Positions 16,252 through 64,000 of a DNA stretch of 64,000 bases are shown here, in pieces (position 1 is the stretch's first letter; every line of letters starts with the position of its first letter). Below the pieces are notes generated by a model, which had not been told where the DNA came from, did no database searches, and worked only from the letters and a program-made list of their open reading frames with translations. The translations under genes were made by a program, and so were the position numbers. Source of the DNA: an uncultured Pseudomonadota bacterium (GTDB lineage Bacteria > Myxococcota_A > UBA796 > SXON01); assembly GCA_903844155.1 (NCBI GenBank), contig CAIMSU010000332.1:3856-67855 (forward strand), given 5' to 3'.

Positions 16252-16381
16252 CCGAGGCCGGATATCCTGTTGCAGGGGCGGGATTGCCTGGCGCGTGCGC
16301 CGCCGTGTGTGTGAGAGTTTCGGGATCCCGGGAAGAGCGGCCGAGGTCGTCTGTTAGAGGGAAGAACCGACCCGGACTCTG

Positions 16382-17518: not shown

Positions 17519-18678
17519 CCCGTCAGCGCTGGCGGTGGGGGGTCGCTGTTGCCCTGCTTGCGGTGTTGGCGGTCGGCGGCGCGGAGGCGAAGGTCGTCCA
17601 TCACAAAAAGAGCACGACCGTCGTGCCGATCTCCGCGAGCACGGAGGTGCCGGAGATGCGGGTGCATTTCCTGAACGTGGGCCAGGGGGCGTCCACCCTG
17701 ATTGAGTTTCCGTGCGGGGTGATGCTGGTCGACACGGGCGGCGAGCTCGACAAGGACTTCGACAGCAACGCCGCCTTGCAGGCCTACCTCGATGCCTTTT
17801 TCGCCCGTCGGACGGATCTGAACAAGACGATCGACCTGCTCTGGTTCACGCACCCGCACATCGACCACGTTCGCGGGGCGGCGACGGTTTTGAACAACTA
17901 CACCGTCAAGAACATCGTCGATGACGGGTACAAGGCGACCCAGGCGGACGCCGTCGTCTCCGTCGGCCTCGTCCGCGATTTTGTCGACAACCATGCCGAG
18001 GTTCACTACCAGGCCGTCGCAACGGACGATTTCGCGTCCGACGGCTCCGGCCTGACCTCCGCGGTCATCGACCCATTCCCCACGTGCAAGGGGGCGGATC
18101 CGAAGATCCAGGCGCTATGGGGCCAGCTCCGCTCGGACCCCGGCTGGGGTCAGGACGACTACGGCAAGGATCGCTTCGCCAACGCCAACAACCACAGCGT
18201 CGCGGCGCGCGTCGACCTCGGCAAGTCGAGCCTTTTGATCACGGGCGACATGGAGCTGCCCTCCATCGCCATGCTCCTTGACTCCCGGAAGCCCGAGCTG
18301 CTGGACGCGGACATCTACGAGGTTGGCCATCACGGGTCCGCCAACGGCACCACCGCGGACCTGTTGCGCGCCGTCACGCCCTCGTGGGCAGTCATGGAGG
18401 TTGGACCATACGATCGCAAGTCGAGCTGGACGGCGTGGGCGTACGGGCACCCGCGCGAGGGCACGATCGACCTGCTGGAGGCCGGGGTCACCGGCTTGCG
18501 GCCGAAGGAGTCCGAGGAGGTGGGGACCGGGGTGAAGTCGTTCATCCCGGAGGACATCGAGAAGGCGATCTATGCGACGGGATGGGACGGATCGCTGGTG
18601 CTCGACGCGAAGGCGGATGGGACGATCACCCTCGGGAAGGTCGACCTGGCGCAGCCGGCGCATCCGGAGCCGGGGTAG
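17515..18678 (+). CDS. Exported metallo-beta-lactamase-fold protein, ComEC C-terminal-domain-like
   Basis: The GTG at 17515 overlaps the upstream stop. N-terminal hydrophobic segment (VAVALLAVLAVGGAEA). Motifs VHFLNVGQGAS, MLVDTGG, HPHIDHVRG (HxHxDH) and EVGHHGS, as in the ComEC/Rec2 MBL domain. Confidence 0.78.
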   Translation: MTRQRWRWGVAVALLAVLAVGGAEAKVVHHKKSTTVVPISASTEVPEMRVHFLNVGQGASTLIEFPCGVMLVDTGGELDKDFDSNAALQAYLDAFFARRTDLNKTIDLLWFTHPHIDHVRGAATVLNNYTVKNIVDDGYKATQADAVVSVGLVRDFVDNHAEVHYQAVATDDFASDGSGLTSAVIDPFPTCKGADPKIQALWGQLRSDPGWGQDDYGKDRFANANNHSVAARVDLGKSSLLITGDMELPSIAMLLDSRKPELLDADIYEVGHHGSANGTTADLLRAVTPSWAVMEVGPYDRKSSWTAWAYGHPREGTIDLLEAGVTGLRPKESEEVGTGVKSFIPEDIEKAIYATGWDGSLVLDAKADGTITLGKVDLAQPAHPEPG

Positions 18679-20662
18679 GCGCGCGGACTGTCGGCAAACG
18701 GGCTTTCCACCACTCGAATGTGGCGTCCGTGGGCGCCCGGTAGGCCATGCACATTCGCGTGCCCATGGCGAGCAGCAGGCGAGCGGGCTCGGGCGAGCTT
18801 GCGGCGGCCTTCGCGTGGAACCCGCCGCCCACCCAGTTCAGGCTCGGCGCCGGCAACGGGATCTCCGCGACCTGCCGCGCGCTGAGCTTGATGGCATCGG
18901 TCGAGAGCGCCACGCCGGCGTACCGGGCGAGCGCCCAGGCCGAGACCGGCGGGGCGAGCAGGACGGCCAGCACGCGCCAGAGATCGGCGGGGTCGTTCGG
19001 GATGACCGTGATCGTCGGAACAGCGTTGAGCACGATGCCATCGGGATCGGCGAAGGCTTCGAGGACGCGGGTCTGGGTCGCCAGGACGATCTTCGGGACC
19101 AATCGGGTGGCGGCCCAGGCGCGCATCGACGGGCTCAGGCGGGCGAGGTCCACGCGGGGGCGCTCGTAGCGCACGCCCGCGTAGGTCCCGCCGCGCACGC
19201 CCCAAAGGGAACGTCCAACATCGATCATCCCGGTCACCACCAGGCGAGGGAACTCGCGCTCGTCCATCCCGTCCACGTGCTCGACGATGCAGCCGGCCAG
19301 GCCGTAGTACTGGTCGCGAAAATCGGCGGTTGTCCGGGCGATGTCGCCGAGGACGCGGTGGGGGCCGGCGGGGAGGGGGAGGTGGACGGCCGGGACGCCG
19401 AGCAGGTCGGCGACGAGGTGGCCCCAGGTCGGAGCGTCGGCGATTGCCTCGTGGCCGGCGAGAAGGGGCGCGGCCGGCTCAAAGTCGTTGCCGAACGCCC
19501 GACGGATGCCCATCTGGGTTCCGCGGAAGACCTCCAACGCGACGACGCAAACACGCACGTCTGCGTCCGGGAAGATGCGGTCGGTGGTCAGCCAGACGCT
19601 CCAGAACCGGGCGCGCTCGGTCAGCCGCTTGCGCGCGGGCTCGGCGTCCTTCGCGGCGAGCAGGGAGAGCGGGGTGACCAGCGCGACCCGGCCGCGGGGT
19701 CGGGCGAGGTCGACCGCGCGGAGGACGAAGAGCGTGGCGACGTCGGTGTAGGCGCGTCGGGCTGCGCCGAAGCGGGCCTGGAGCCGGGCGGCGGTTTCCC
19801 GGTCGACGGTCGTGTCCGCGCCAAGCTGGTTGAGGTAGGGCGGGTTGCCGACGACGGCGTCGAACCCCTCGCCGATGTCGGAGAATGGCGGGTCGTCGAG
19901 GAGTCCGTCCGCCCACTGTACCCGCGCCTCGAAGCGGTCGACGGGGACGGTCGGGTCGCCGAGCGCCAACCAGAGAACGGCCCTGCAGACGGCGATGGCG
20001 ACCGTATCGGTGTCCATGCCGTACAAGCCGCTCGCACCGTCTGCGCCGAGCCGTCGCAGCGCGGCGAGCAGGAAGTTGCCGGTTCCACAGGCGGGGTCGA
20101 GGACGGTGAACGCCCCGGCCCGGAGCCTGATGCCTTCGGGAAGGGAAGAAACTCCGGTTTCATCAAGAATATGCTCGACGAGCGCGGGCGGCGTGTAGTA
20201 GCTCCCCGAGCGCCGCCGGGCCCCATCGCCTGTTTCGGGCTCCACGAGCACAAAGGGGCCCTCGAACCGGGGGACGAGGCCGAGGATCGCCTCCCACGCC
20301 GCGCCGAGGCGCTCGGGCGGACCGTCACAGTCGGCGTCAAAGGGGCCGAAGACGCGGGCGTAGCGCTCGTCGCCGAGCGGGTCTGAGCCTCCGGGGCCAT
20401 CGAGCAGCTCGCAGCCGTTCAGTCGGAAGATGCTGAAGATGTCGCCGGCGCCCGGAAGTCGGGTGACCGCCGCGCGGAGCTGCCCGCGGGAGACGCCGGC
20501 GGGCAACAGACCCGACCGCCGCAACACCCAATACAGCGCGACGAAACGGAACAGTTCCTGCACCACCGCCCGCCCTTGCGCGTGCGCCCGTGCCAGCGCG
20601 AGGATGCGCTCGCCCCCGACGACATTCCCCGGCGCCAGGCACTCCGCTCCCAGCCGCTCCAT
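18626..20662 (-). CDS. Gamma-class N6-adenine DNA methyltransferase (Eco57I/TaqI-like family), solitary
   Basis: Motif X-like GSYYTPPALVEHIL, motif I VLDPACGTGNFLLAA and motif IV VVGNPPYL. A long C-terminal region is consistent with a target-recognition domain. The ATG at 20662 is preferred over the TTG at 20740 because the upstream codons have lower GC3. Confidence 0.82.
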   Translation of the reverse strand: MERLGAECLAPGNVVGGERILALARAHAQGRAVVQELFRFVALYWVLRRSGLLPAGVSRGQLRAAVTRLPGAGDIFSIFRLNGCELLDGPGGSDPLGDERYARVFGPFDADCDGPPERLGAAWEAILGLVPRFEGPFVLVEPETGDGARRRSGSYYTPPALVEHILDETGVSSLPEGIRLRAGAFTVLDPACGTGNFLLAALRRLGADGASGLYGMDTDTVAIAVCRAVLWLALGDPTVPVDRFEARVQWADGLLDDPPFSDIGEGFDAVVGNPPYLNQLGADTTVDRETAARLQARFGAARRAYTDVATLFVLRAVDLARPRGRVALVTPLSLLAAKDAEPARKRLTERARFWSVWLTTDRIFPDADVRVCVVALEVFRGTQMGIRRAFGNDFEPAAPLLAGHEAIADAPTWGHLVADLLGVPAVHLPLPAGPHRVLGDIARTTADFRDQYYGLAGCIVEHVDGMDEREFPRLVVTGMIDVGRSLWGVRGGTYAGVRYERPRVDLARLSPSMRAWAATRLVPKIVLATQTRVLEAFADPDGIVLNAVPTITVIPNDPADLWRVLAVLLAPPVSAWALARYAGVALSTDAIKLSARQVAEIPLPAPSLNWVGGGFHAKAAASSPEPARLLLAMGTRMCMAYRAPTDATFEWWKARLPTVRAPTPAPDAPAAPGRPSRG

Positions 20663-20811
20663 CGCCCGTCGGAATGCATCGCTGGTGCTGGGTTTCAACG
20701 CGTGGTGCCCGGTCGGCCGAATACCACGAATCGCCGGCAAAATCGCACCGGCCCTTGCTTTTGGGGGGTGTAAGGCGCTATTGTGGGTCTGTACGCCCGG
20801 AGCCTTTGCCC

Positions 20812-22530
20812 ATGTTCACGATGATGTCCGCCTCGCTCGCCGTCTTGAGCATGTCGACCCCCGCGCACGCCGGGGACTGGCCGGCCGGGGCGACCGTTCC
20901 CCAGGCGGCTACCGTGGACATCACGCCCGAGGGCTTTCAGGCCATCGCGGCGCTGATTCCCGCGTTGATCCCCAGCAACATCGCGATTCCGGAGACGGGG
21001 GCCTCCGGTGGCTACTGGTGCTTTGACTACATGTACGATCTCGCCGGCGGCTGGGTCGGTGTGCAGGTCACGGACGCGACGATCACCCCCGGCGACGGCG
21101 TGCTGGACATCAACGCGGATCTGCTGGTCAACGTGAACGATTCCAGCGATCCCTTTGATTTGTCCTACGAGATCCTCTGCTCGTCCGGCGACTGCGGCGG
21201 CTACGTCACCCCCTTCGCCGTCCACTTCTCCACGACCATGGCCCTCGCGGTCGTCGACAACGGCGACGGGACCACGTCCGTCGACGCGACCGTCGGCACC
21301 CCCGTCGTGACCTACGACCTCACGAACGACAACATCGTGCTGGATTGCTGGGTGCAGGACCTCGAAAATGTGCTGAGCTACTTCGGTCTGTCGCTCTACC
21401 AGCTCATCATCGACCAGGTCTCGGGTCAGCTCGACAGCACCATCGCCAACCTCGGCCCCACGCTTGAGACTGCCATTGAAAGCGCGTTTGCCTCGGCGAA
21501 CATCCAGCAGGATCTCAGCCTCAACGGCGTCACCGCGCACGTCCACTTCTACCCGTCCGACATCACGATCGACCCGACCGGCGTGCGGCTGACGATGGCG
21601 GGCTCGATGAGCGCGGACGCCGCGAGCTGCATCGCCGCCTACGACCCCGGCACGTCGCTAAAGACCGAGTCCTCGCCCCCGGATCTCGGCGTGGCGCCCT
21701 CCGGCGTCGACTCGCCGTTCCACCTCGGCATCTCGCTCTCGGACGACTTTGCCAACGAGGCGATGTACGCGCTGTGGCGTGGCGGATTGCTCTGCTACAA
21801 CCTGGCTCCGGACAACAGCACGTTCCCGCTGGACACGTCGGTCCTGAACCTGCTGACCGGCCAGGCGTTCGCCGACCTGTACCCGGAGAGCGAGCCGATG
21901 TCGCTCAACACGGTGCCGCGGGCCGCGCCGACGGTCAGCTACACGGGCACCCATCCGATCGACGTGAACCTCAACAACCTCGATCTGGACATGAACGCCG
22001 AGCTTGACGGCCGGATGTCCCGCATGATCGCGGTGACCCTGAACGGGCCCGTTGGCGTCACGCCGACCCTCGACGGTAGCACGGGCAGCCTGGCCATCGC
22101 GTTGGACGTGAACCCGGCGAACCTCAACCCCACCGTGACCTACAACGAGTTCTACCCGGACGCGAATTCCACGATCGAGGCCAGCTTTGGCACCTCGCTC
22201 TCGGGCGTGCTGGACACGGTGCTGGGCAGCCTGTTGAGCGGGCTGCAGTTCGCGATCCCGAGCTTCAGCGGGATCGGGCTCCAACAGCTTGAACTCGCCC
22301 CCGCTGGCACCAACCAGGACTGGCTTGGCGCGTACGCGTGGATTGGCGCGGTCACCTACACCAGCAGCAGCGGGTGCGGTGGGTGCGGCGGGAGCGACTC
22401 GGGCGGTGATTCCGGAGCGAGTAGCTCGTCAAGCTGCGGCGGTGGCTGCGCGACGGGCGGGATTCCTGCAGCGTGGTCGCTCGTGGTGCCGTTCGGGCTG
22501 CTGCTCGGCTTGCGTCGCCGCGGGGAGTGA
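20812..22530 (+). CDS. Secreted protein with MYXO-CTERM-type C-terminal sorting signal
   Basis: ATG at 20812 with a signal peptide (MFTMMSASLAVLSMSTPAHA). The C-terminus is a Cys/Gly/Ser tract (GCGGCGGSDSGG...CGGGCATGG), then a hydrophobic helix and an RRRGE tail. Confidence 0.78.
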   Translation: MFTMMSASLAVLSMSTPAHAGDWPAGATVPQAATVDITPEGFQAIAALIPALIPSNIAIPETGASGGYWCFDYMYDLAGGWVGVQVTDATITPGDGVLDINADLLVNVNDSSDPFDLSYEILCSSGDCGGYVTPFAVHFSTTMALAVVDNGDGTTSVDATVGTPVVTYDLTNDNIVLDCWVQDLENVLSYFGLSLYQLIIDQVSGQLDSTIANLGPTLETAIESAFASANIQQDLSLNGVTAHVHFYPSDITIDPTGVRLTMAGSMSADAASCIAAYDPGTSLKTESSPPDLGVAPSGVDSPFHLGISLSDDFANEAMYALWRGGLLCYNLAPDNSTFPLDTSVLNLLTGQAFADLYPESEPMSLNTVPRAAPTVSYTGTHPIDVNLNNLDLDMNAELDGRMSRMIAVTLNGPVGVTPTLDGSTGSLAIALDVNPANLNPTVTYNEFYPDANSTIEASFGTSLSGVLDTVLGSLLSGLQFAIPSFSGIGLQQLELAPAGTNQDWLGAYAWIGAVTYTSSSGCGGCGGSDSGGDSGASSSSSCGGGCATGGIPAAWSLVVPFGLLLGLRRRGE

Positions 22531-37395: not shown

Positions 37396-38652
37396 CTACA
37401 TCCCGTCGCAGGGGTCGTTGGGCTGGCCGGGGGTGCCGGCGTCGGTCATGCCGGCGGGGATGGTGGTCTCGTCGCACCAGTGCGCCATGTCGTCGTTGAG
37501 GACGCCGTCGAGCATCGTGGGATCGAGGCCGTAGGCGGCGCCGGGGATGATCGCGTCCGTGCTGGTGTCGTTGTAGTCGAACTTGTCGATGTCGACGCCG
37601 TCGGGGCTGGTGAGGTCGAGCTCGTCGTCGTTGTTGGCGATGGCCATGCCGGAGCCGTGGCCAGTGCCGGCGGCGGGCTCGATGCCGAGGGGGTTGCGGT
37701 AGAAGGCGGCGTCGCAGGGAACGCCACCGTTGGTGGTCGGGTCGATGTCGGCGCAGATGACGACGTACTCGTGGGGCGGGACTGGCACCGAGGCGTCGAA
37801 GACCCAGATGTCCGTGCCGTCGTCATGCAGCGTGTAATTCGCGAGGTCCAACGTGCTGCCTGACGTGTTGTACAGCTCCACGTACTCGCCATACTGGTCT
37901 TCCACGGCGTTGGGGTCGACCATGACCTCCGTGAAGATGAGGTCCCCGGGCTGGGGGACGACGACCTGATCGGTGACGTCCACGGTGATCGACGCCGAGC
38001 CGACCTCACCGTCCGTGTCCGTGCAGGTGAGCGTGATGACGTGGGTGGCGATGGTGAGCGACGACGTCAGCAGCGCGGACTGGCCGCCCCCGGAGATCGC
38101 GCCGGGGAGCGCACCGTCGACGTCCGAGGACCAGGCGAACACGAGGTCGTTGGGGGCCGTGGCGCTGTCGTTCGCCTCGCCGGTGAAGGTGATGGAGGTG
38201 CCCGCGGTGACGCTGGTGCCGTCGGCGGGTGCGGTGATGAGGACGACGGGCGGGCCGAGCGGGCCTTCGACCTGGAACGCCACGCTGGTCGACGCGGAGG
38301 AGCCGTCGAGGTCGGTGACGAGCATGTCGATGGTGTGGTCGCCGAGCGTCATCGTTGACGCGTCAAGGGGCGTCGAGACGTTCCCGTCGGCGTCAGCGGT
38401 GACGGGCGTGGCCGTCCCGCTGTCCAGCGACCAGGTGACGGCGAGCTGGGGCGCGGGATCTTCGGCGTCGCTGACGACGGCCTGGACGATGCCGTCGGTC
38501 CCTTGTCGCCAGACGGCGTCGGCGATCGGGGAGGTGATGCCGATGACCGGCTTCTGGTTCACGTGACCGATCTTGCTGTCCGATTGGCAGCCACCGAGCA
38601 TGGCGGCGAGACTGACGACGATCAACGTGCAGAAGTGGTGGGTCGGGTGCAT
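37396..38652 (-). CDS. Lipoprotein with two Ig-like domains and a C-terminal lamin-tail domain (LTD)
   Basis: Lipobox MLGGC. Two repeats of about 95 aa (VVSDAEDP...VAFQV and GEANDSATAP...ITVDV). The LTD pattern is LIFTEVMVDPNAVEDQYGEYVELYNTSGSTLDLANYTLHD. Confidence 0.8.
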   Translation of the reverse strand: MHPTHHFCTLIVVSLAAMLGGCQSDSKIGHVNQKPVIGITSPIADAVWRQGTDGIVQAVVSDAEDPAPQLAVTWSLDSGTATPVTADADGNVSTPLDASTMTLGDHTIDMLVTDLDGSSASTSVAFQVEGPLGPPVVLITAPADGTSVTAGTSITFTGEANDSATAPNDLVFAWSSDVDGALPGAISGGGQSALLTSSLTIATHVITLTCTDTDGEVGSASITVDVTDQVVVPQPGDLIFTEVMVDPNAVEDQYGEYVELYNTSGSTLDLANYTLHDDGTDIWVFDASVPVPPHEYVVICADIDPTTNGGVPCDAAFYRNPLGIEPAAGTGHGSGMAIANNDDELDLTSPDGVDIDKFDYNDTSTDAIIPGAAYGLDPTMLDGVLNDDMAHWCDETTIPAGMTDAGTPGQPNDPCDGM

Positions 38653-38689
38653 GAAGGCTCCGCTCTGAGGACGCCTATCAAGGAGGCGC

Positions 38690-39049
38690 CTACTCCGTAC
38701 ACTCCAACACCGTCAGCCCCACGCCCGGATCGCAGTCAACCCAGCCCTCTGGCGCCGTACACGCTGTGTACCCGACGCATTCGTCCGTCGCGTTGCCGTT
38801 CGCGTCGGGCGGGCTCGCGTAGCGGGTGCCAGCGGAGCAGTCCTTTGACGGCGTTGCCGCGCAGACGAGGTTTTTCGTGACGGCGGAAGGCGGCAGGCAC
38901 CAGGTCCCGTTCGGGTTGTCCATCTCGGTGCCGATGAAGATGGAGCAACCATCCTGCTTCTGGCAGATGCCCGTGTCGTATTTCGCGCAGGGGTCGCCAT
39001 TGTTGCAGCCGATAAGGAGGGCGACGAGGACGACGAGGCGGGTGCGCAT
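38690..39049 (-). CDS. Small Cys-rich lipoprotein
   Basis: ATG at 39049, lipobox LLIGC, 12 Cys in 119 aa. Only the last 120 codons of ORF 38690..40987 are credible; the rest is antisense to prs and the GT gene. Confidence 0.6.
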   Translation of the reverse strand: MRTRLVVLVALLIGCNNGDPCAKYDTGICQKQDGCSIFIGTEMDNPNGTWCLPPSAVTKNLVCAATPSKDCSAGTRYASPPDANGNATDECVGYTACTAPEGWVDCDPGVGLTVLECTE

Positions 39050-40093: not shown

Positions 40094-42265
40094 ATGCGCG
40101 TAGCAGTCCTGACACGGCCCGACCTCTTCCCCGCGTGGCACGGCGCGGCGGTCAAGATCGTGCGGACGGTCGAGGCGCTCGCTGCGCGGGGCGACGTCGT
40201 CAGCGTGGTGACCGAGGATCGGGACCGGTACTGGCGCGTGGACCGTGAGGGCTGGCATGACGTGGCGTTTGGCGCCCGTTTTCGCGCGATGCAGGAGTGG
40301 CCGGTGCTTCGGAACCAGGCGCGGGCGGCGCGGTGGGTCGCGAGGGCGGGGTATCCCGTGGAAGAGCTGGCATTGTACCGGCCGATGTTCGACCCGGCGT
40401 GGTGGGCCAGGGTGCTGTACGTGGGGCACGCCGAGGCGATCGACGTCTGGCAGCCGGAGTTTCCGGGGTTTGTCGTGCCCGCGGTCCTCGCGCGACGGGT
40501 GCTCGGCGGGCGGATCACGGTCGGGACGCACAACGCCGAGTTTGACCGGTTGGCACAGACCAACTCGCTGGCGCCGGCGCGGCTGAAGCGCCTCCGTCGG
40601 ATCGAAGCCGCGTTGCTCAACCGCGCGGACGACGTCGTCGCCTGCTCCATGCCCGACGCGGAACGCCTGCGGGAAGCCGGCGTTGAACGTCCTATCTGGC
40701 ACGTGCCGCACGGGGTGGAGGTTGGCGCCTATCGAGGCCCCGGAACGCCCGATCTGCGCGTCCGGTACGGGCTCGGCGGCGGTCCCGTCGTCTTCTTCCA
40801 CGGCACGCTGCACTACGGTCCAAACCGCGATGCCGTCGAGTACCTCGCGCGCGAGCTGGCGCCGATTTTGCCGCCTGCGACGACCATCCTCATCGCAGGT
40901 CTGACTCCGCCGCGTGAGCTGGAGGGGCCGCAGGGCGACGGCGCGACGGTCCGGTTCACGGGCCCCGTCGACGACCTCGCGGGCCACATCCGGGCCGCGG
41001 ACGTGTGCGTGTGCCCCGTGTTTGCCGGCGGCGGGACGCGGATGAAGCTGTTGGAGTATTTCGCCGCGGGGAAGCCGGTGGTCTCGACGGCGCTAGGTGC
41101 TGAGGGGCTCAACGTCGAGCATGACCGGGAGCTGATCCTCGCGGAGCGGGCGGAGTTCGCGCGGGCGGTCGAGGACCTGCTCTGGGACGCGGCGCTGCGT
41201 CGTCGGGTGGGGCAGGCGGCGAGGCGTTGGGTGGGCGCGTACGACTGGAGCGCCGTCGGGCGGGCGTGGCAGGCGGTTCACCGGGGAGAAGGCCGGGATT
41301 TTGTGGCCGAGGTGCCGGTGGACGCGCACCTTCCCGTCCGCGCCGTGTCCAAGCCGCGCACGCTGCTCTTCCTGATAAACCGCGGCTGCAACCTACGTTG
41401 TTCGTTCTGCGACCTCTGGGAGGGGAGCGAGAACGTCTCGCTGGAGCGGGCGGCGTCGTTGTTCGACGAGGCCGTCGCCATTGAGACGAAGTCGGTCGTG
41501 CTGACCGGTGGCGAGCCGATGATCCACCCGCAGTTTTTTGAGATCGTCGCTGCGGCGCGGGCGAGGGGGCTCTCGGTGAACGTGACGACGAACGGCACGT
41601 TGGTTGAGCGAAACTGGGCGCGGATCCTGGAGTCTCGGCTGGACAGTCTGTCGATGAGCATTGACGGGCTTCCGGAGACGCACGATCGGCTCCGCGGGCG
41701 CACGGGATCGTTCGCCCGCACGTGGAAAGCGCTGGAGCGTGTGGTGGCGCACGGGCTTGACGCGTGCGTGTACTTCACCGTCACGCGCGAGAACGTCGGC
41801 GAGCTTGTGGAGGTCTGGCGCCGGGTAATGAGGCTCGGCGCCCGCTTTGACTTCTGGCCCGTGAACGACGCCCCGGACCTCTACCTGCGCGCCGAGGACG
41901 AGCCTGTCTGGCGCGCCGCCGTCGAGACCATCGCGGCCACGGACCCTGCTGTGGCTGGTCGAGCGCACTACTACGCGCAGGCGCTCGGCTACCACCGCGG
42001 TGAAACCGGGCCCGTCCGCTGCCTCGGCTTCATCGATCAGTACGGCGTGCGCTACGACGGCGCGTTCCTGCCGTGCTGCGTGTGGGGCGGCGAGGGGCTG
42101 GCGGCCGGAAACGTATGGGAAACGCCGCTTTCCACGCTTTGGCGCTCTCCGGAGGTTCAGGCGAGGCGCGAGCGGCTCTACGCGGCCGGCTGCACGGTCG
42201 GCTGCTACAACCACAGCTTGTACGAATTCGGTGTTTCGACCGGGCTTTCACACCGGTTGCCCTGA
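40094..42265 (+). CDS. Fusion protein: GT4/GT1-type glycosyltransferase (N-terminal) plus radical SAM domain with SPASM/twitch-like Cys motifs (C-terminal)
   Basis: GT-B C-terminal pattern: FFHGTLHYGPN...GGGTRMKLLEYFAAGKPVVST. Then the CX3CX2C radical SAM motif in the context GCNLRCSFCD, and GGEPM. The tail has C-X12-G-X4-C (CLGFIDQYGVRYDGAFLPC) and GCTVGC. Confidence 0.84.
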   Translation: MRVAVLTRPDLFPAWHGAAVKIVRTVEALAARGDVVSVVTEDRDRYWRVDREGWHDVAFGARFRAMQEWPVLRNQARAARWVARAGYPVEELALYRPMFDPAWWARVLYVGHAEAIDVWQPEFPGFVVPAVLARRVLGGRITVGTHNAEFDRLAQTNSLAPARLKRLRRIEAALLNRADDVVACSMPDAERLREAGVERPIWHVPHGVEVGAYRGPGTPDLRVRYGLGGGPVVFFHGTLHYGPNRDAVEYLARELAPILPPATTILIAGLTPPRELEGPQGDGATVRFTGPVDDLAGHIRAADVCVCPVFAGGGTRMKLLEYFAAGKPVVSTALGAEGLNVEHDRELILAERAEFARAVEDLLWDAALRRRVGQAARRWVGAYDWSAVGRAWQAVHRGEGRDFVAEVPVDAHLPVRAVSKPRTLLFLINRGCNLRCSFCDLWEGSENVSLERAASLFDEAVAIETKSVVLTGGEPMIHPQFFEIVAAARARGLSVNVTTNGTLVERNWARILESRLDSLSMSIDGLPETHDRLRGRTGSFARTWKALERVVAHGLDACVYFTVTRENVGELVEVWRRVMRLGARFDFWPVNDAPDLYLRAEDEPVWRAAVETIAATDPAVAGRAHYYAQALGYHRGETGPVRCLGFIDQYGVRYDGAFLPCCVWGGEGLAAGNVWETPLSTLWRSPEVQARRERLYAAGCTVGCYNHSLYEFGVSTGLSHRLP

Positions 42266-42324: not shown

Positions 42325-43074
42325 ATGCCGTGGGTGTCTGTACAGTTCAAGGGCAAGGAGGTCTGGGCCGAGTGCGACGCTGCAGGGGCGCCGGTGGTGA
42401 CAGGTGCGCTGCGACGCGTGCGCTACTCCCCGGCTGCGGGTGCCAAGCTCTACACGGCAAACGCTGGAAACATCCAGGCGACGGGCGCCCGGCCGGTGGA
42501 CCTGCCGGAGGGGACCGCGCAGGAGCCAGCCGCGACGGGCAGCGCGCCGGGGTCGGTCGGTCGGACGGGTAGCGGTTTCGGGAAGGCGGGGACGAGGACA
42601 GCCGCGCAGGCGACGGCCGCGAAGGTGGACGCAAAAGCCCGGTTGGATGCGCTTGGTCCCGAGGTCATCCGGGCGTTCACCGATGGCGCGTGCTCGGGAA
42701 ATCCCGGGCCGGCGGGGGCGGGCTGCGTGGTCAAGCTGCCGGACGGGCGGGTCATCGAGCGCCACAAGGGGCTCGGCGAGGGGACGAACAACATCGCGGA
42801 GCTCGTCGCCATCGGCATGGCGCTGGAGGTGCTGCGCGAGCTTGGGGTCGACAAGCAGAGCCCCGTCGCGATCTTCTCGGACTCGGCCTACGCGCAGGGG
42901 GTGTTGACGAAAGGCTGGAAGGCGAAGGCAAATGTCGTGCTCATCCGCAAGATCCGCGAGGCGATGGCGGAGTGGCCGAAGGTGGAGTTGAACTGGGTCG
43001 CCGGGCACGTCGGCATCGCGGAGAACGAGCGGGCGGACGCGCTGGCGAACAAGGGCGTGTACGAGAGCCGGTAA
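42325..43074 (+). CDS. rnhA: Ribonuclease HI with an N-terminal extension of about 115 aa
   Basis: RNase H core: FTDGACSGNPGPAGAGCVV...TNNIAELVAIGMALE...IFSDSAY...GHVGIAENERADALA. The ATG at 42325 is preferred. Confidence 0.84.
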   Translation: MPWVSVQFKGKEVWAECDAAGAPVVTGALRRVRYSPAAGAKLYTANAGNIQATGARPVDLPEGTAQEPAATGSAPGSVGRTGSGFGKAGTRTAAQATAAKVDAKARLDALGPEVIRAFTDGACSGNPGPAGAGCVVKLPDGRVIERHKGLGEGTNNIAELVAIGMALEVLRELGVDKQSPVAIFSDSAYAQGVLTKGWKAKANVVLIRKIREAMAEWPKVELNWVAGHVGIAENERADALANKGVYESR

Positions 43075-43077
43075 GCG

Positions 43078-43722
43078 TCAGGCGTCGCGGCGGAACATCA
43101 CGTCGGTGCGCAGGACGGTCTTTCGGCCGGCCGTGACCAACGCGCCCTCGTGCAGGATGCGGTGCTGAAAGAGGAGGGCCATGCCGCGTTTTGGCACGAC
43201 CGCGGTTCGGCCATCGAGGAACCGGGTGGCGCCGCCCTCGCAGCCCTCGTCGAGGTAGAACATCAGCGTGAGCTGGGATTCCTCGACGTTGGACCGACGA
43301 AAGGAGCCGTCGATGTGCGGCGCGAAGACCTGACCGGGCCCGTAGCGGTACACGCGCAGGCGCTCGTTCAGGCCGATCGGCCGCCAGGCGTCGTACATCA
43401 CCATGGGGATCGTGTGGGCAACGCGATCGTAGAGCATCGCCGCGAGGCCCGGGTGGTCGACCATCGCCCGATCGTTGTTGCGGATGTCCGGACGCATGAC
43501 CGGACCGATCGCTGTCGTGATTGGCGCGATCGAGAGGTCGAGCGTGTCGACCCATTCCAGCAGCTCGTCGCATTCGGTGGCGGTCAGCGCCTCGTCTACG
43601 CACCACACGAGCGCGCAGGAAGGGTCCACGACGAACCCCTGAAACCTGCCAGGAAAACCCGGCAGGACCACGCGCGCAGGCAAGCGCGGGGCGACGTCCT
43701 CAGTTGTCCTGCGCCCCGTCAT
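43078..43722 (-). CDS. 2OG-Fe(II) oxygenase (prolyl 4-hydroxylase-like)
   Basis: Motifs YGPGQVFAPHIDG (HxD), ...LLFQHRILHEG (distal His) and ...RKTVLRTDVMF. The start is uncertain: ATG 43722 overlaps the upstream gene by 23 nt, and the alternative is GTG 43671. Confidence 0.74.
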   Translation of the reverse strand: MTGRRTTEDVAPRLPARVVLPGFPGRFQGFVVDPSCALVWCVDEALTATECDELLEWVDTLDLSIAPITTAIGPVMRPDIRNNDRAMVDHPGLAAMLYDRVAHTIPMVMYDAWRPIGLNERLRVYRYGPGQVFAPHIDGSFRRSNVEESQLTLMFYLDEGCEGGATRFLDGRTAVVPKRGMALLFQHRILHEGALVTAGRKTVLRTDVMFRRDA

Positions 43723-44071
43723 CGATCCAGCTCTCCAGCTCGGCGAGGTGCGTTGCGTCCAGGCCACCGCTACCCGACGGCATCGCGATGCCGGTGATCC
43801 CCGACTGGTTTGCGCACTTCTGCCAGAGAAAGCTGTTGGCGTGGTCGCCGGGCTCGACGAGGTTGATCGAAGGATCCAGCGAGGACGGCACGCCGACGGT
43901 CGCCGCGTAGGAGTTGCCATCGGTGAGCGAGAGGCCCTGGGCGCCGCCGCCGCTGCCGTGGCAGGTCGAGAACGCGCAGGACTTTGTGTAGATGTCGGCC
44001 TGGACGTCGGTGAGCGTGGATGGGGCCGGGGCACCGGTGCAGCCGGTCAGCAAGAAAACGAGGAGCAACAT
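43700..44071 (-). CDS. Small lipoprotein with PSCyt1-like cytochrome c domain (CX4CH variant)
   Basis: Lipobox LLTGC. The pattern IYTKSCAFSTCHGSGGGAQGLSL...LVEPGDHANSFLWQK...MPSGSGGLDATHLAELESWIDDGA mirrors the planctomycete-type cytochrome c domain. Confidence 0.62.
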   Translation of the reverse strand: MLLLVFLLTGCTGAPAPSTLTDVQADIYTKSCAFSTCHGSGGGAQGLSLTDGNSYAATVGVPSSLDPSINLVEPGDHANSFLWQKCANQSGITGIAMPSGSGGLDATHLAELESWIDDGAQDN

Positions 44072-44077
44072 GGATCT

Positions 44078-45034
44078 TCAGTCCGAGCAGATGTCAGCGG
44101 TGAGGGCGGGGTAGACCATCGAGACGGCCGCGCACATCTCGCCGGGGAACGTGAGGTCGTTGTCCGTGTCGTTGTACCATTCGCAGGTTGTACGCCAGAC
44201 GCTGCCCGCTTCGGCGACGAAGGGGCTGGCGGTGTGGTCCTCGATCGGGGGCGTGTCCCGATAGGCCGGGTCCCATTGCTCCTCGTAGAAGGTGGTGGAG
44301 GTGCCGTCGGGATCGATCTTCTCGAGCTTGAAGTGCGTGCCCCACTCGTGCATGTGCCCGATGAAGTACAGCATGTTGTAGGGCGTCGCGAAGGTGCAGT
44401 CGAACGTGTCGGTCTGCGCGGAGTGGGCGGGGATGCTGAACTTGTCCTCGTTGGTGGTCCAAGGCGCTGCCCAGTCGGTGACCTGGTCGTCCGGAATCGT
44501 GTTGGAGATGCCGATGGCGTTGACCAGCAGCGTGTTTCCGGACGTGTTCACGTTGTGGACCTGCAGGATCGTCCGCTGCCCGCTGCGGAGCTTCGTCGCG
44601 ATGCCGGTCGGGAGTGCCATGCCGAACGCCTCGCCATTGCCGCCGGTCGGCAGGATGATGGGCTGCAGGTCGCTCATCGGCAGATCGGCGGTCTGCGTGC
44701 AGTCGAAGAACTCGCCGTCCGGCATGTCGATCGCGTTGGTGCTCGTACCGAGCAGGAGTACGTGGTGGCCGTACTCCGCCTGCTGGTAGCCGCCGAACGT
44801 GGTGAGCGCGACGTCGGGACCGGTGTACGTGCCGGCGAGGCACATCTGGGTGTCGGTGTAGGGAGGCACTTCGAACGCCGGCATCTCCCACGAGATGTCG
44901 GTCGGGCCGACGGCCGGGTAGTCGACGCCAGCGGTCATCGTGAGGTCGACGACGGCGCTGCCGGAGCCCGTGTCGGCGGGTTGGGTGCAGGCGCCGAGCG
45001 CGGGGAGGATCAGGAGGAGGAGAGGGGAACGCAT
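44078..45034 (-). CDS. Lipoprotein, copper type II ascorbate-dependent monooxygenase (PHM/DBH)-like
   Basis: Lipobox ALGAC. The spaced motifs match the CuH and CuM ligand sets of peptidylglycine alpha-hydroxylating monooxygenase: YGHHVLLLG (HH), TILQVHNVN (compare PHM LQVHY), GHMHEWG (HxH) and PGEMCAAVSMVY (compare PHM DEMCNLYIMYY). Confidence 0.76.
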   Translation of the reverse strand: MRSPLLLLILPALGACTQPADTGSGSAVVDLTMTAGVDYPAVGPTDISWEMPAFEVPPYTDTQMCLAGTYTGPDVALTTFGGYQQAEYGHHVLLLGTSTNAIDMPDGEFFDCTQTADLPMSDLQPIILPTGGNGEAFGMALPTGIATKLRSGQRTILQVHNVNTSGNTLLVNAIGISNTIPDDQVTDWAAPWTTNEDKFSIPAHSAQTDTFDCTFATPYNMLYFIGHMHEWGTHFKLEKIDPDGTSTTFYEEQWDPAYRDTPPIEDHTASPFVAEAGSVWRTTCEWYNDTDNDLTFPGEMCAAVSMVYPALTADICSD

Positions 45035-45053
45035 CAGGGTGTCCGGGCTCGGG

Positions 45054-45581
45054 TCAAGAGGAGGGGTCGAGCATGTTCATGACGACGGTGAAGGGGGTCT
45101 CGGCGCCTGCGACGACGATGACCTTGTCCTCGTTCGGGATGGTGATCGGCTCGCCGGGGTTGGCGCAGCCGTCGCCGTTCAAATCCAGGCAGCCGAGGAT
45201 CCAGACAACGCCGCCAGCGAGGGGTTGCGTGGTGTAGACGACCCCGGTGGGGCCGCCGTTGTTGGTCAGATCGAGCGCGACGGAGATGTCTTCGAGCGAG
45301 ACGGCGCCGTCGTTCGGGCCGAGCGCGGTTGCATCCGCCTCGGCGTAGATCGAACCACCAAACGTACCGACGGGCGGCGCGGTCATCGACGGGATGAGGT
45401 CGGCCTCCATCTGGAAAGCCAGGGCGAGGGTCCCGGGGCCATGGGCGGTGTCGTGCGCACTCGAAGAGTCGCTGGAGGTGGCGCTGTCGCTCGCGGTCTT
45501 GCCGGCCGAGCAGGCCGCGCTGAGGACCGGCAAGAGACAGGTCGCGAGCAGGAGGTTCAAGCGCATGAGTCGCGGTAGCAT
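45054..45581 (-). CDS. Lipoprotein, unknown function
   Basis: Lipobox LSAAC and a Ser/Asp-rich linker. First gene of the apparent operon. An alternative ATG lies at 45566. Confidence 0.6.
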   Translation of the reverse strand: MLPRLMRLNLLLATCLLPVLSAACSAGKTASDSATSSDSSSAHDTAHGPGTLALAFQMEADLIPSMTAPPVGTFGGSIYAEADATALGPNDGAVSLEDISVALDLTNNGGPTGVVYTTQPLAGGVVWILGCLDLNGDGCANPGEPITIPNEDKVIVVAGAETPFTVVMNMLDPSS

Positions 45582-45647
45582 ACCCCCGGGGCGTCCGCGC
45601 GGGATGCCTTGTCAAGGAGGTGTCAAGGCATGGCAGATCCCCCTGGA

Positions 45648-46307
45648 TCAGGGGAAGAGCGAGCCCTGCCGCAGCACGTCGAGCGTGCCCCATCGCGTGC
45701 GGACGCAGGTGGGGAGGGGCTCACTGCGGTTGATGAAGCCGAGCAGCCAGGCGCGGGTGACCGGGTCGGAGGGATACCCGCTGCCGACGCCTCCGACGCC
45801 CGCATATTCGGCGTTGAGCGCCTCGATCGCCTCATCCCGCAGGACCTTCGCAAAGATGCTCGCTGCGCCTACGACCGGCCAGGTCGCGTCCGCCTTTGGC
45901 TCGATCGTCCAGCCCCGAACACCGCTGCGTCGGACGAGATCGGCCTGCAACTTCGGGATTCCGCGAGGATTCACGGGCGCGTCGAGGAACACGTGGTCGG
46001 GGTTGGTCTGGCGGACGATGTCGAGGAAGGCGTCGACCTCAAGGGCGTTGAGGTTGCCTTCGTCGATGCGGGCTGGCGGGATGGAGCGTGTGTGCGCTGA
46101 GCCCAGCTGTGCCAGGCCCGCTCGCACGCTTGTCCGTCGGCGAGCGGAGAGCGCTTTGGAGTCGTCCGCCCCCGCGGCCCGAAGCGGGAGCTGGCACGCC
46201 AGAAGTGGCTCGGCGCCCTCGTGTTCATAGAGGAAACCGCCCACGACGAGCGGCCCGAGGACGCAGCCGCGGCCGGCTTCGTCGAGGCCAAGGATGCGTA
46301 GCTTCAT
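45648..46307 (-). CDS. rnhB: Ribonuclease HII
   Basis: ATG at 46307. Motifs ILGLDEAGRGCVLGPLVV, DSKALS, ASIFAKVLRD and GSGYPSD. The upstream part of ORF 45648..46796 is antisense to nuoA and was rejected. Confidence 0.87.
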   Translation of the reverse strand: MKLRILGLDEAGRGCVLGPLVVGGFLYEHEGAEPLLACQLPLRAAGADDSKALSARRRTSVRAGLAQLGSAHTRSIPPARIDEGNLNALEVDAFLDIVRQTNPDHVFLDAPVNPRGIPKLQADLVRRSGVRGWTIEPKADATWPVVGAASIFAKVLRDEAIEALNAEYAGVGGVGSGYPSDPVTRAWLLGFINRSEPLPTCVRTRWGTLDVLRQGSLFP

Positions 46308-46418
46308 CCGAACCGGTAACCAGCCATCCGGTCCGTTGCCCACGCCCTCCTCCCGCGTTACTCGCGCGCCCTTGCCCCCCGCTTCGCCGCCCCGCGCCTG
46401 CTCCTGTCGAGGTGTCCC

Positions 46419-46790
46419 GTGATCAGCCCCTACGTCCCGCTGATGATGTCGCTGGTCATCGCCGTCGGGTTCAGTCTGGTCTTTGTGGGATTGAGCAAGT
46501 TCTTCGGGCCGCAACGCCCGAACGCAACCAAAGAGTCGCTGTACGAGTGCGGCATGCCCTCCGTCGCGCAGGCGCATCAGCGGTTCTCGGTCAAGTTCTA
46601 CCTTGTCGCGGTGCTTTTCATCCTGTTTGACCTGGAAGCGGTGTTCCTCTTTCCCTGGGCCGTCGTGTACAAGCAGTTCGTGCTTGACGGTCACGCCGCA
46701 TTCCTGCTGTCCGAGATGTTCTTCTTCCTCGGCGTGCTTTTTGCCGGGTGGGTCTACTGCTGGAAGCGGGGAGCGCTGCAATGGGACTAG
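46419..46790 (+). CDS. nuoA: NADH-quinone oxidoreductase subunit A
   Basis: Three TM segments. Motif YECGMP...[15 protein letters not shown] start. Confidence 0.9.
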
Positions 46791-62218: not shown

Positions 62219-63135
62219 CTGATCCGGCCCGGTCCGCCCGTCGGATCCTCCCTGTGCTGCTCACGCTGTCGTTGGCCACCGGATGCATCGACAACGGCAT
62301 CCACGGCGCGCGCAAGTCCGCCGTGGCAGTCGTGCTCGGCGATTTTGACGACCTGACGACCTCGCTGGTCGCGCTGGATGTCGCGAGTGAGCCCTGGGAC
62401 GGCTTCATCGTGCAAGCCACGTATTCGCCGGCGGACAACCGATTGCAGCGGGGAGATCTGCAGAACCAGGCGGAGGAGATCCTCACCCAGAACGACAGCA
62501 ACACGCTCGTCCTGAACGACTACGGCACCCTGTTTGTCGCCTCGGGAACCCGGGGCTTCGGCACTGTCCAGTACAACGACGCCACGCTCCCCGACAACGG
62601 GATGATCACCGACGCGGCGCTGTCCCACGTCTGTGACTTTGCAAACGAAGGCGGCCTGCTGGTTGTCACCGACTGGGCCTACGATCTCGTCGAGCACTGC
62701 TGGCCGGACAACATCGAGTTCGTCGGCGATGACACGGTCGTGGACGCCGCGCAAACCGGTATTCCGGGGAACGGGGTGCTCGCCACGGTGAACGACTCCA
62801 AGCTCGCGGCGGACGTCGGGGATGTGGTGACGTTGGACTACAACTACAGCGATTGGTCCGTGATCAACTCGGTGTCGAGCGACACCGAGGTCCTGCTCTC
62901 CGGCGACGTGTCGTACCAGCCGTCCGCTACCGAGGCCGCGAAGACGCTCACCGGCGTCCCGCTGCTCGTGCGGTTTGCCCCTGGTGCCAACAAGGCCGGC
63001 CAGGTCATCTACAGCACGTTTCATCTCTCGGCCCAGAACCCGACCTTGCAGCAGGCTATTCTGCTCGACGGCATGACCGGGCTCACCCGCGGCGGCGGTG
63101 GCGTGCCGGACTCCGGAGGCAGCAGTGGCTCGTAG
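62215..63135 (+). CDS. Lipoprotein, unknown function
   Basis: The GTG overlaps the upstream stop (GTGA). Lipobox LATGC. Gly/Ser-rich C-terminal tail. Confidence 0.63.
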   Translation: MTDPARSARRILPVLLTLSLATGCIDNGIHGARKSAVAVVLGDFDDLTTSLVALDVASEPWDGFIVQATYSPADNRLQRGDLQNQAEEILTQNDSNTLVLNDYGTLFVASGTRGFGTVQYNDATLPDNGMITDAALSHVCDFANEGGLLVVTDWAYDLVEHCWPDNIEFVGDDTVVDAAQTGIPGNGVLATVNDSKLAADVGDVVTLDYNYSDWSVINSVSSDTEVLLSGDVSYQPSATEAAKTLTGVPLLVRFAPGANKAGQVIYSTFHLSAQNPTLQQAILLDGMTGLTRGGGGVPDSGGSSGS

Positions 63136-64000
63136 CATCCCCAGGTTCGCGGCCCTGCTCGCGCTCGTTCCGCTCTCGGTCTCCTGTCAGGATCAGGGCT
63201 ACACCCAGCTCAAGCACCAGGACTTCTTCCAACAGAACACCCTGCAGACCGTGGACGTGCTGCTGGTCGTCGACAACTCGTGCTCCATGGTCGAGGAGCA
63301 GAACAAGCTCGCCACCAACTTCGACACGTTCATCCAGTATTTCACGGATGCGAACGTGGACTGGCAGATCGGCGTCGTGACGACCGACATGGCGCAGGCC
63401 AAGTTCTCCGGTCGGCTCATCGGCGGCGACGACGAGATCATGCTCTACGACGCGACCGGGCAGGCCCAGGACAGCGTCTCCTACGACAAGACCTGGCCGG
63501 TGGGCCCCGGCGTGGTCTTCTCGCTGGACCCCAGCTACGACACCGTCACTTCCAACGACTCCCTCGACCACTGGTGTACGACCGTAGCAGCGACGCCCGG
63601 CGCGCCCAATCCGGGCTGCGGTGGCACGGGGACAGGCGCGGACGATCGGCTCGGCAGCATCGTCATCACCGAATTCGTCCCCGACCCCGATCCCGTCGAC
63701 GACACGCTTGGCGAGTGGTTCGAGGTCACGAACATCTCGGCGACGGACGTGGATCTCTCCGGCTGGTCCATCGCGGACACCGGGCGAAACCTCTACACCG
63801 TCCCGGACGGCACCACCATCGCCGCTGGCGGGATCAAGGTCTTCGGGCGGTCGGCGGACACGTCCGTCAACGGCGGAATCCCGGTCGATGTCGCCTACGG
63901 CGATGCATTCACCCTGAACAACCACGATTTGTTCATCACGCCGCAGACGGATGACCCATCGGAGGTCTTCTCCGAGATCGTCGCGCAGGGGACCAGTGGC
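63125..64000 (+). CDS. Lipoprotein with vWA-like MIDAS motif and an embedded lamin-tail domain (partial, runs off the window)
   Basis: This frame is not listed in the ORF track because it has no stop before the window end. GTG at 63125 gives VARSIPRFAALLALVPLSVSC (lipobox). Then VDVLLVVDNSCSM (DxSxS) and the LTD pattern IVITEFVPDPDPVDDTLGEWFEVTNISATDVDLSGWSIAD. The frame stays open with high GC3 to 64000. Confidence 0.7.
   Translation, partial: MARSIPRFAALLALVPLSVSCQDQGYTQLKHQDFFQQNTLQTVDVLLVVDNSCSMVEEQNKLATNFDTFIQYFTDANVDWQIGVVTTDMAQAKFSGRLIGGDDEIMLYDATGQAQDSVSYDKTWPVGPGVVFSLDPSYDTVTSNDSLDHWCTTVAATPGAPNPGCGGTGTGADDRLGSIVITEFVPDPDPVDDTLGEWFEVTNISATDVDLSGWSIADTGRNLYTVPDGTTIAAGGIKVFGRSADTSVNGGIPVDVAYGDAFTLNNHDLFITPQTDDPSEVFSEIVAQGTSG

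Follow-up and report, generated by a model that had tools for sequence, protein, structure and literature searches.

A conserved bacterial lipoprotein module joins a divergent PHM/DBH-type copper monooxygenase homologue to a putative cytochrome c partner

Introduction

Knowledge of the copper enzymes peptidylglycine alpha-hydroxylating monooxygenase (PHM) and dopamine beta-hydroxylase (DBH) and of their relatives comes almost entirely from animals, in which they depend on ascorbate and make amidated peptide hormones and noradrenaline. They serve as textbook examples of electron transfer over a long distance, between two copper sites that are uncoupled and lie ~11 A apart across the interdomain cleft. 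Databases list some bacterial proteins with a Cu2_monooxygen domain, and the mere existence of bacterial homologues is thus not new; a search of open-access papers and preprints for bacterial PHM/DBH-type enzymes returned nothing relevant, which, given its incomplete coverage, is no proof of absence. The present study concerns four genes in a stretch of 64,000 nucleotides from an uncultured Pseudomonadota bacterium (Myxococcota_A in the GTDB lineage; contig CAIMSU010000332.1, positions 3,856 to 67,855 of the forward strand), which as a whole is called the window below. In gene order, the encoded proteins are a lipoprotein (A), a lipoprotein with remote homology to PHM and DBH (P), a small lipoprotein with a c-type-cytochrome-like domain (C), and an oxygenase dependent on 2-oxoglutarate (2OG) and Fe(II) that resembles prolyl-4-hydroxylases (P4H) (O). 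An earlier note, made from the sequence alone, had proposed that the four genes form one extracytoplasmic hydroxylation pathway. The comparison of related loci reported here shows that the conserved unit is the three-gene lipoprotein module A-P-C.

With PHM, the catalytic core of PAM (1phm, 1opm, 3mll), P shares a two-domain beta-sandwich fold (Foldseek E ~1e-15, template modelling (TM) score 0.61-0.64, ~305 residues), the ligand pattern HH...H...HxH...M, an EMC motif in which the Cys beside the Met takes part in a disulfide, and an oxidising location that is extracytoplasmic or luminal. Unlike PHM, it is bacterial and lipid-anchored, has no PAL partner, is only ~15% identical in sequence and escapes the Pfam Cu2_monooxygen model; its likely reductant is a cytochrome c instead of ascorbate, and three PHM residues, Arg240, Asn316 and Tyr318, correspond by spacing to Ile225, Ala302 and Val304. 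The ligands and six cysteines of P also align with those of human DBH (4zel), which stands in one group with tyramine beta-monooxygenase and the MOXD1-type proteins. DBH carries extra non-catalytic beta-sandwich domains (DOMON and dimerisation) that are loosely comparable to A, which occurs as a separate or a fused domain, whereas P is monomer-sized, with 318 amino acids (aa), and has neither of the two; a profile of A searched against PDB and Pfam had no detectable similarity to them.

The counterparts of C are the domains of FoxE and PSCyt1, in which a haem motif is likewise followed by ...PG(D/E)...S.L..., ...MP... and ...WI..GA. C differs from them in that every homologue has CX4CH or CX5CH in place of CXXCH, and in being a single-domain lipoprotein genetically linked to a predicted copper monooxygenase. 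O has the 2OG-FeII_Oxy_3 domain, the HxD...H triad and the 2OG-binding Lys of the Bacillus anthracis P4H, at ~25% identity, and its position beside A-P-C is limited to two lineages.

Results

Gene P (44078-45034, minus strand) encodes a 318-aa lipoprotein with the lipobox LGAC and Cys16 as the lipidated residue. The motifs quoted for P and C in the earlier note are all present where it had placed them, those of P being YGHHVLLLG (residues 88-96), LQVHN (157-161), GHMHEWG (226-232) and GEMCAAV (298-304). Searches with the single P sequence found very little: in the Pfam scan, PF03712 (Cu2_monoox_C) reached E 0.045 and 13.7 bits, below its cut-off of 23 bits, and PF01082 (Cu2_monooxygen) was unmatched, so that the proposed check with these two models did not recover the family. 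The NCBIfam scan gave no match, and the PDB search returned only a chance match to an antibody. A homologue search yielded 48 clusters, all of them without an informative name or a Pfam domain. At the level of the family the picture is clearer, as 26 of 41 members match PF03712 below threshold (best E 2.7e-5), and the alignment of the 41 sequences has H90, H91, H160, H227, H229, M300, six cysteines, E230, E299 and W254 as invariant positions.

When the family profile was run against the PDB, human DBH was the only significant sequence (E 1.7e-4), and in this alignment the HH pair, H160, M300 and all six cysteines are paired with their DBH counterparts. Alignment of P with the DBH core by hhalign (83%, E 8.7e-6) pairs HxH with the HTH of DBH, and thus the two alignments combined place all six proposed ligands opposite the ligands of DBH. 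The AlphaFold2 model of P is of high confidence (predicted local distance difference test (pLDDT) 91.4, predicted TM score 0.84), and the top 31 PDB matches found for it by Foldseek are all PHM or DBH structures (E 2e-15 to 4e-11; TM ~0.6, ~15% identity, ~305 residues aligned), after which the next-best match drops to E 5e-5 and TM 0.19. The structure prediction that had been proposed for this protein has given a confident model and, at the level of the fold, a match to PHM and DBH. The kinship of P to PHM and DBH thus follows from three independent lines, namely the family profile, the hhalign comparison and the fold match; single-sequence searches are nearly blind to it, and the homology becomes visible only with the profile of 41 sequences and the structure.

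Conservation was then counted in 196 family proteins, each count covering the proteins that span the position in question. All six proposed ligands are kept in every protein that spans them, and the motifs are therefore not due to chance. His90 and His91 (44762-44767, minus strand), the first two proposed ligands of CuH, the electron-transfer copper site, are invariant, and HMMER places them opposite residues 223/224 of the DBH chain, taken here to be His262/263. The proposed third CuH ligand, His160 (44555-44557, minus strand; 196/196), is aligned to His333 in the HYHN of DBH. For CuM, the O2-activating site, the proposed HxH is His227-Met228-His229 (44348-44356, minus strand; 196/196), placed by hhalign on His412/414 in the HTH of DBH, and the proposed Met is Met300 of the EMC motif (44135-44137, minus strand; 195/196, the exception being a gap), aligned to Met487 in the EEMC of DBH. 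The cysteines C65, C112, C213, C284, C301 and C316 are also conserved, and each is aligned to a DBH cysteine in the profile alignment. Nearly all P homologues have the lipobox Cys, and the N-terminus is lipobox-like in 147 of the 196 family members. On the strength of profile and model, P is judged to be a genuine member of the PHM/DBH superfamily, in a bacterial branch that has diverged very far and has kept the predicted two-copper ligand set intact, as had been proposed from its motifs.

The likely substrates of P are narrowed down by one comparison. In rat PHM, the carboxylate of the substrate glycine is anchored by Arg240, Asn316 and Tyr318. The positions in P that correspond to them by spacing from the ligands, not by superposition, are occupied by Ile225, Ala302 and Val304, and these columns are variable within the P family. 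Since the anchors have no counterpart in P, a peptidyl-glycine substrate is unlikely, and a glycine-extended peptide is probably not what P acts on.

The gene neighbourhood of P was compared in 50 genomic loci and in loci from direct look-ups, in which six-frame open reading frames (ORFs) were searched with the four window proteins; the loci were first retrieved with a nine-sequence subset of the P alignment, the full 41-sequence alignment being insufficiently conserved for this purpose. Among 53 non-redundant related loci with P, A lies beside P in 47 and C in 41; 38 loci have both neighbours, and one has O. The linkage of A and C to P persists down to ~27-32% identity and is found in the gene orders A>P>C>, C>P>A>, C<P>A> and P>C<A<, and its retention through rearranged orders and at low identity argues for selection and against mere inertia. 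In addition, the genes are fused in some cases: P0071 joins a C domain to the N-terminal side of P (39% identity, E 6e-20), C and P share a single ORF in locus L042, and P0092 and P0131 carry an A domain at the C-terminus of P (hhalign 99.9%, E 3e-33). Conserved adjacency and fusions together identify A-P-C, and not the four genes, as the conserved functional unit. The conservation of a four-gene neighbourhood that had been suggested as a check thus holds for three of the genes and fails for O.

The three loci L008, L010 and L011, the P proteins of which are 70-75% identical to that of the window, share the arrangement nuoA< rnhB> A> P> C> rnhA< GT<, where GT is a glycosyltransferase gene, and the less closely related loci L007, L013 and L015 likewise have the order from nuoA to GT without O. 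Tandem P paralogues (A> P> P> C>) are present in L021 (1404-3538) and L027 (3610-5936), which suggests local duplication, possibly with diversification of substrates. The proteins P0113/P0173 and P0123/P0170 have Cys-rich C-terminal extensions of ~100 aa, of two types, in place of an A domain.

Gene C (43700-44071, minus strand) encodes a 123-aa lipoprotein (lipobox LTGC with Cys11). Its c-type-cytochrome-like domain has the extended haem-c-type attachment motif CX4CH in the form CAFSTCH, from Cys32 to His38 (43958-43978, minus strand). The motif is a fixed feature of the protein, as 37 of 40 homologues have CX4CH, three have CX5CH and none has CXXCH, and an alignment of 13 C sequences has C32, A33, F34, S35, C37, H38, M97, P98 and W115 as invariant residues. 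Met97, which with Pro98 (43778-43783, minus strand) forms an invariant Met-Pro pair, is the candidate distal axial ligand; in class I cytochromes c the axial Met lies just before the C-terminal helix, as Met97 does in C. The C profile matches both haem domains of the dihaem protein FoxE (5mab; E 8.7e-5), and in both of them the CH of C is aligned to the CH of CXXCH. The Pfam scan of C gave only sub-threshold matches, to Cytochrome_CBB3 (E 0.012) and to PSCyt1 (E 0.14), and the specific PSCyt1 assignment was therefore not recovered. CX4CH has been described as a rare haem-c attachment motif (bioRxiv 10.1101/2024.01.05.574438; PMC10734462). From these sequence features we read C as a putative monohaem cytochrome c with His38/Met97 ligation and an enlarged attachment loop. 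The description of C as a c-type-cytochrome-like protein with CX4CH is thus upheld by its 40 homologues and the FoxE match, and its pairing with P by conserved adjacency and gene fusion.

Gene A (45054-45581, minus strand) encodes a 175-aa lipoprotein (lipobox SAAC with Cys24) with a conserved C-terminal domain of ~130 aa, in which no His, Cys or Met is conserved across the alignments. A search of the PDB with the A profile returned no match, and a marginal similarity to DUF2141 was seen for two of 22 members (E 0.004). A is probably a non-metal accessory domain, and its faint resemblance to DUF2141 permits the guess of a beta-rich fold. Of the partners of P, A has the most consistent linkage. 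The earlier note was right to call it a lipoprotein, and undervalued it as merely an unknown one, given how often it adjoins P or is fused to it.

Gene O (43078-43722, minus strand) encodes 214 aa when translated from the ATG at 43722. The protein matches Pfam 2OG-FeII_Oxy_3 above the cut-off (E 1.8e-10) and the Bacillus anthracis P4H (3itq/5hv0) with E 7e-7, and H136-x-D138, H191 and K201 are aligned with the residues of that enzyme. By the criteria of sequence, O is a bona fide P4H-like 2OG-Fe(II) oxygenase, and this assignment of the earlier note has stood. Lipoprotein signal peptides are present in A, P and C; neither a signal peptide nor a lipobox was found in O, nor an export signal in its homologues. 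The proposed extracytoplasmic setting is thus appropriate for the three lipoproteins and not for O. With more than 569 stand-alone homologues, among them proteins from the cultured genera Archangium, Myxococcus and Vitiosangium, the family of O is a large one, and a 70%-identical copy lies in an unrelated gene context in L060. The only other locus with the four-gene form is L058, where P is 68% and O 72% identical to the window proteins. A recent horizontal acquisition of O was considered and rejected because its codon usage is native, with a G+C content at third codon positions (GC3) of 0.87. Most likely, O is a cytoplasmic enzyme that was inserted behind the module in one small sub-lineage and is functionally independent of it.

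The P family is large. An exhaustive profile search with a limit of E <= 1e-3 yielded at least 5170 clusters (50% identity), 2185 of them with E <= 1e-10, and the diverse clusters that were looked up are named 'hypothetical protein' or are nameless. The related loci stem from metagenome-assembled genomes (MAGs) labelled Myxococcota or Deltaproteobacteria, and the names of samples and isolates suggest that many are from lakes. Five loci (L010, L014, L018, L020 and L022) come from MAG records with titles that name Bifidobacterium breve, Enterobacteriaceae, Klebsiella or Enterobacterales. In L010 and L014 the nuo/rnhB synteny is that of the Myxococcota MAGs, and A-P(-C), otherwise seen only in those MAGs, is present in all five; they are probably mislabelled bins.

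In the window, the four genes are co-directional on the minus strand and occupy 43078-45581 according to the ORF listing and re-translation, which agree with the spacing reported earlier: gaps of 19 nucleotides (nt) between A and P and 6 nt between P and C, and an overlap of 23 nt between C and O if the ATG at 43722 is used. For identical public contigs, gene callers predict the same four products. The start of O is uncertain, as an alternative GTG at 43669-43671 would give ~197 aa and a gap of 28 nt after C in place of the overlap, and the closest O homologue, P0211, starts at the equivalent position. All four genes have a GC3 of 0.87-0.92, matching that of the neighbouring genes, in a window with a G+C content of ~68%.

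The same-strand upstream neighbour is the gene for RNase HII (rnhB; 45648-46343, minus strand), 66 nt from the module, and the convergent downstream neighbour (42325-43074, plus strand) encodes a homologue of RNase HI that is extended N-terminally by ~100 aa, so that the module is flanked by both RNase H genes; the nuo operon starts divergently at 46419. Further downstream and also convergent to the module lies a gene (40094-42265, plus strand) whose 723-aa product joins a GT4-family glycosyltransferase to a radical-SAM/SPASM domain and which is syntenic with the module (rnhA< GT<) in L007, L008, L010, L011, L013 and L058. Scanning of 42800-46600 revealed no sigma-70-like promoter, and terminator-like sites in this region are no commoner than in shuffled sequences; the operon boundaries are therefore drawn from the spacing of the genes. 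The rnhB-A intergenic region contains two TTGACA hexamers without a recognisable -10 element. Genes for cytochrome maturation, copper handling or a candidate substrate were not recognised among the other genes of the window.

Several further features of the window may be recorded. A protein with a strong match to the ERG4/ERG24 sterol-reductase family (14968-16353, minus strand; Pfam E 3.4e-73) hints at sterol-type lipid metabolism in the host bacterium. A protein with a MopE-type 'putative metal-binding motif' (PF11617) and FG-GAP repeats is encoded at 5697-7637 (minus strand), and proteins with this motif occur within a few kb of the module in L002, L004 and L007. They were considered as a link to copper and rejected as weak, since the motif is very common in Myxococcota, and their proximity probably reflects this high background. 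Lamin-tail-domain (LTD) proteins are encoded at 37396-38712 (minus strand) and 63077-64000 (plus strand), and one of the two also has a bacterial Ig domain; a further LTD protein flanks the module in L002. An N6-adenine methyltransferase or Eco57I-like restriction-modification protein is encoded at 18626-20815 (minus strand); a plus-strand ORF that overlaps its gene (20467-22530) has no Pfam match and may be spurious.

Discussion

Gene structure, fold homology, conservation of ligands and cysteines, location signals, linkage and fusions were computed directly, and from them we infer that P binds copper, that C binds haem and passes electrons to P, that the chemistry is that of a hydroxylase, and that A has an accessory role. 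On balance, we favour the view that P is an envelope-anchored two-copper monooxygenase that is reduced by C as its dedicated cytochrome c, with A as an accessory protein and O as an independent enzyme. A, P and C would act outside the cytoplasmic membrane, held in the envelope by their lipid anchors. P would be a non-coupled two-copper monooxygenase of the PHM/DBH type, the scaffold of which is held by three predicted disulfides, with His90, His91 and His160 forming the electron-transfer site CuH, and His227, His229 and Met300 forming the site CuM, at which O2 would be activated and the substrate hydroxylated. To our knowledge, ascorbate synthesis is absent from most bacteria. C would replace ascorbate by docking at CuH and delivering two single electrons per turnover, one after the other, and would then be re-reduced by periplasmic electron carriers. 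The O2 activated at CuM would hydroxylate a C-H bond of an extracytoplasmic substrate, and A may bind or present this substrate or hold the complex together.

It should be noted that several observations weigh against this scheme. P remains below the Pfam thresholds, with 13.7 bits against the required 23 for the C-domain and no match for the N-domain. The AlphaFold2 model of C is poor (pLDDT 62), and the fold search with it was not significant; its nominal top matches, hydrazine synthase and FoxE, were not used, in view of the low-confidence model and the non-significant search. In about a quarter of the 53 loci C is not next to P, so that its linkage is not obligatory or C is encoded elsewhere in these genomes. 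The strictly fixed CX4CH or CX5CH with its A-F-S-T/S insert is unusual for a monohaem cytochrome, and it could mark a change of function in C. Lastly, O is tightly packed behind C both here and in L058 and is probably co-transcribed with it in both, and a local functional tie of O to A-P-C is conceivable.

Some of these points feed an alternative for C, which we regard as unlikely and which nevertheless survives best among the rival explanations. It holds that C is a cytochrome-c-derived domain and not a haem protein, and that Cys32, Cys37, His38 and Met97 bind copper, so that C would be a chaperone that loads P, comparable in its ligand chemistry to Sco (CxxxC plus His) or PCuAC, or else that C is a redox partner of the thiol-disulfide type; P would remain a copper monooxygenase, with another electron donor. 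Cys2-His-Met is a plausible ligand set for Cu(I), and copper enzymes commonly adjoin their chaperones. The absence of CXXCH from all homologues and the fixed insert of two or three residues, with A/V-F-S-T/S conserved, suggest a specific local structure and not just a tolerated variation, and the weak sequence matches to cytochrome families and the low-confidence model leave room for such a function. However, C has kept the hallmarks of haem c, that is, the His after the second Cys, the invariant Met-Pro and the N- and C-terminal helices, the profile sets its CH opposite the CXXCH in each of the two FoxE haem domains, and the stoichiometric fusion in P0071 fits an electron-transfer domain better than a chaperone. 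Moreover, CX4CH is an established variant of the haem-attachment site (bioRxiv 10.1101/2024.01.05.574438; PMC10734462). A cytochrome c as the electron donor of P therefore remains the preferred interpretation.

A second alternative, which appears improbable, accepts the PHM fold and the copper sites of P and denies that it is a C-H hydroxylase; P might instead act as an oxidase or a cytochrome-c:O2 oxidoreductase, detoxify superoxide or other reactive oxygen species, or sequester copper in the envelope. That a substrate cannot be named, that the carboxylate anchors of PHM are replaced in P (as judged by spacing), and that MopE-type proteins occur near some loci would all agree with such a function. 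MopE motifs are, however, very common in Myxococcota, and the one in the window is 37 kb away from the module, while the conserved extra domain A is better explained by the handling of a substrate. Above all, the complete His2-Met set of CuM and His3 set of CuH are conserved in the 196 relatives, and such ligand sets mark O2-activating hydroxylation in every characterised member that we know of. The four-gene pathway, in which one and the same peptide, protein or small molecule would be modified by O and P in succession, is very improbable: O does lie on the same strand with an overlap of 23 nt or a gap of 28 nt, has native codon usage, and recurs in the same order in the diverged locus L058, but it is missing from 52 of the 53 loci, including the syntenic L007, L008, L010, L011, L013 and L015, it and its homologues lack the signal peptides of the exported A, P and C, and it belongs to a large stand-alone family of Myxococcota with a 70%-identical copy elsewhere (L060).

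While the fold and the active-site pattern of P are known already, its form as a bacterial lipoprotein, the dedicated and sometimes fused CX4CH cytochrome-like partner, the conserved A domain and the size of a family that Pfam and NCBIfam miss are new. The analysis thereby provides a function-linked context for three protein families that until now were nameless or called 'hypothetical protein'. It is quite possible, though we would stop short of calling it probable, that A-P-C represents a self-contained, ascorbate-independent form of PHM/DBH chemistry that is wired to the respiratory electron pool via a CX4CH cytochrome c of its own, in a large prokaryotic family that may resemble the ancestor of the animal neuropeptide and catecholamine enzymes. 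If this is true, the module would show that PHM/DBH chemistry can run without ascorbate, and it would offer small, expressible prokaryotic models with a defined one-electron donor, in which the transfer from CuH to CuM could be studied. In addition, it would supply a monohaem case in which CX4CH is strictly conserved, and it would help in tracing how peptide-amidating and catecholamine enzymes arose in evolution. For the organisms themselves, widespread freshwater Myxococcota, it would point to a new hydroxylation reaction in their envelope.

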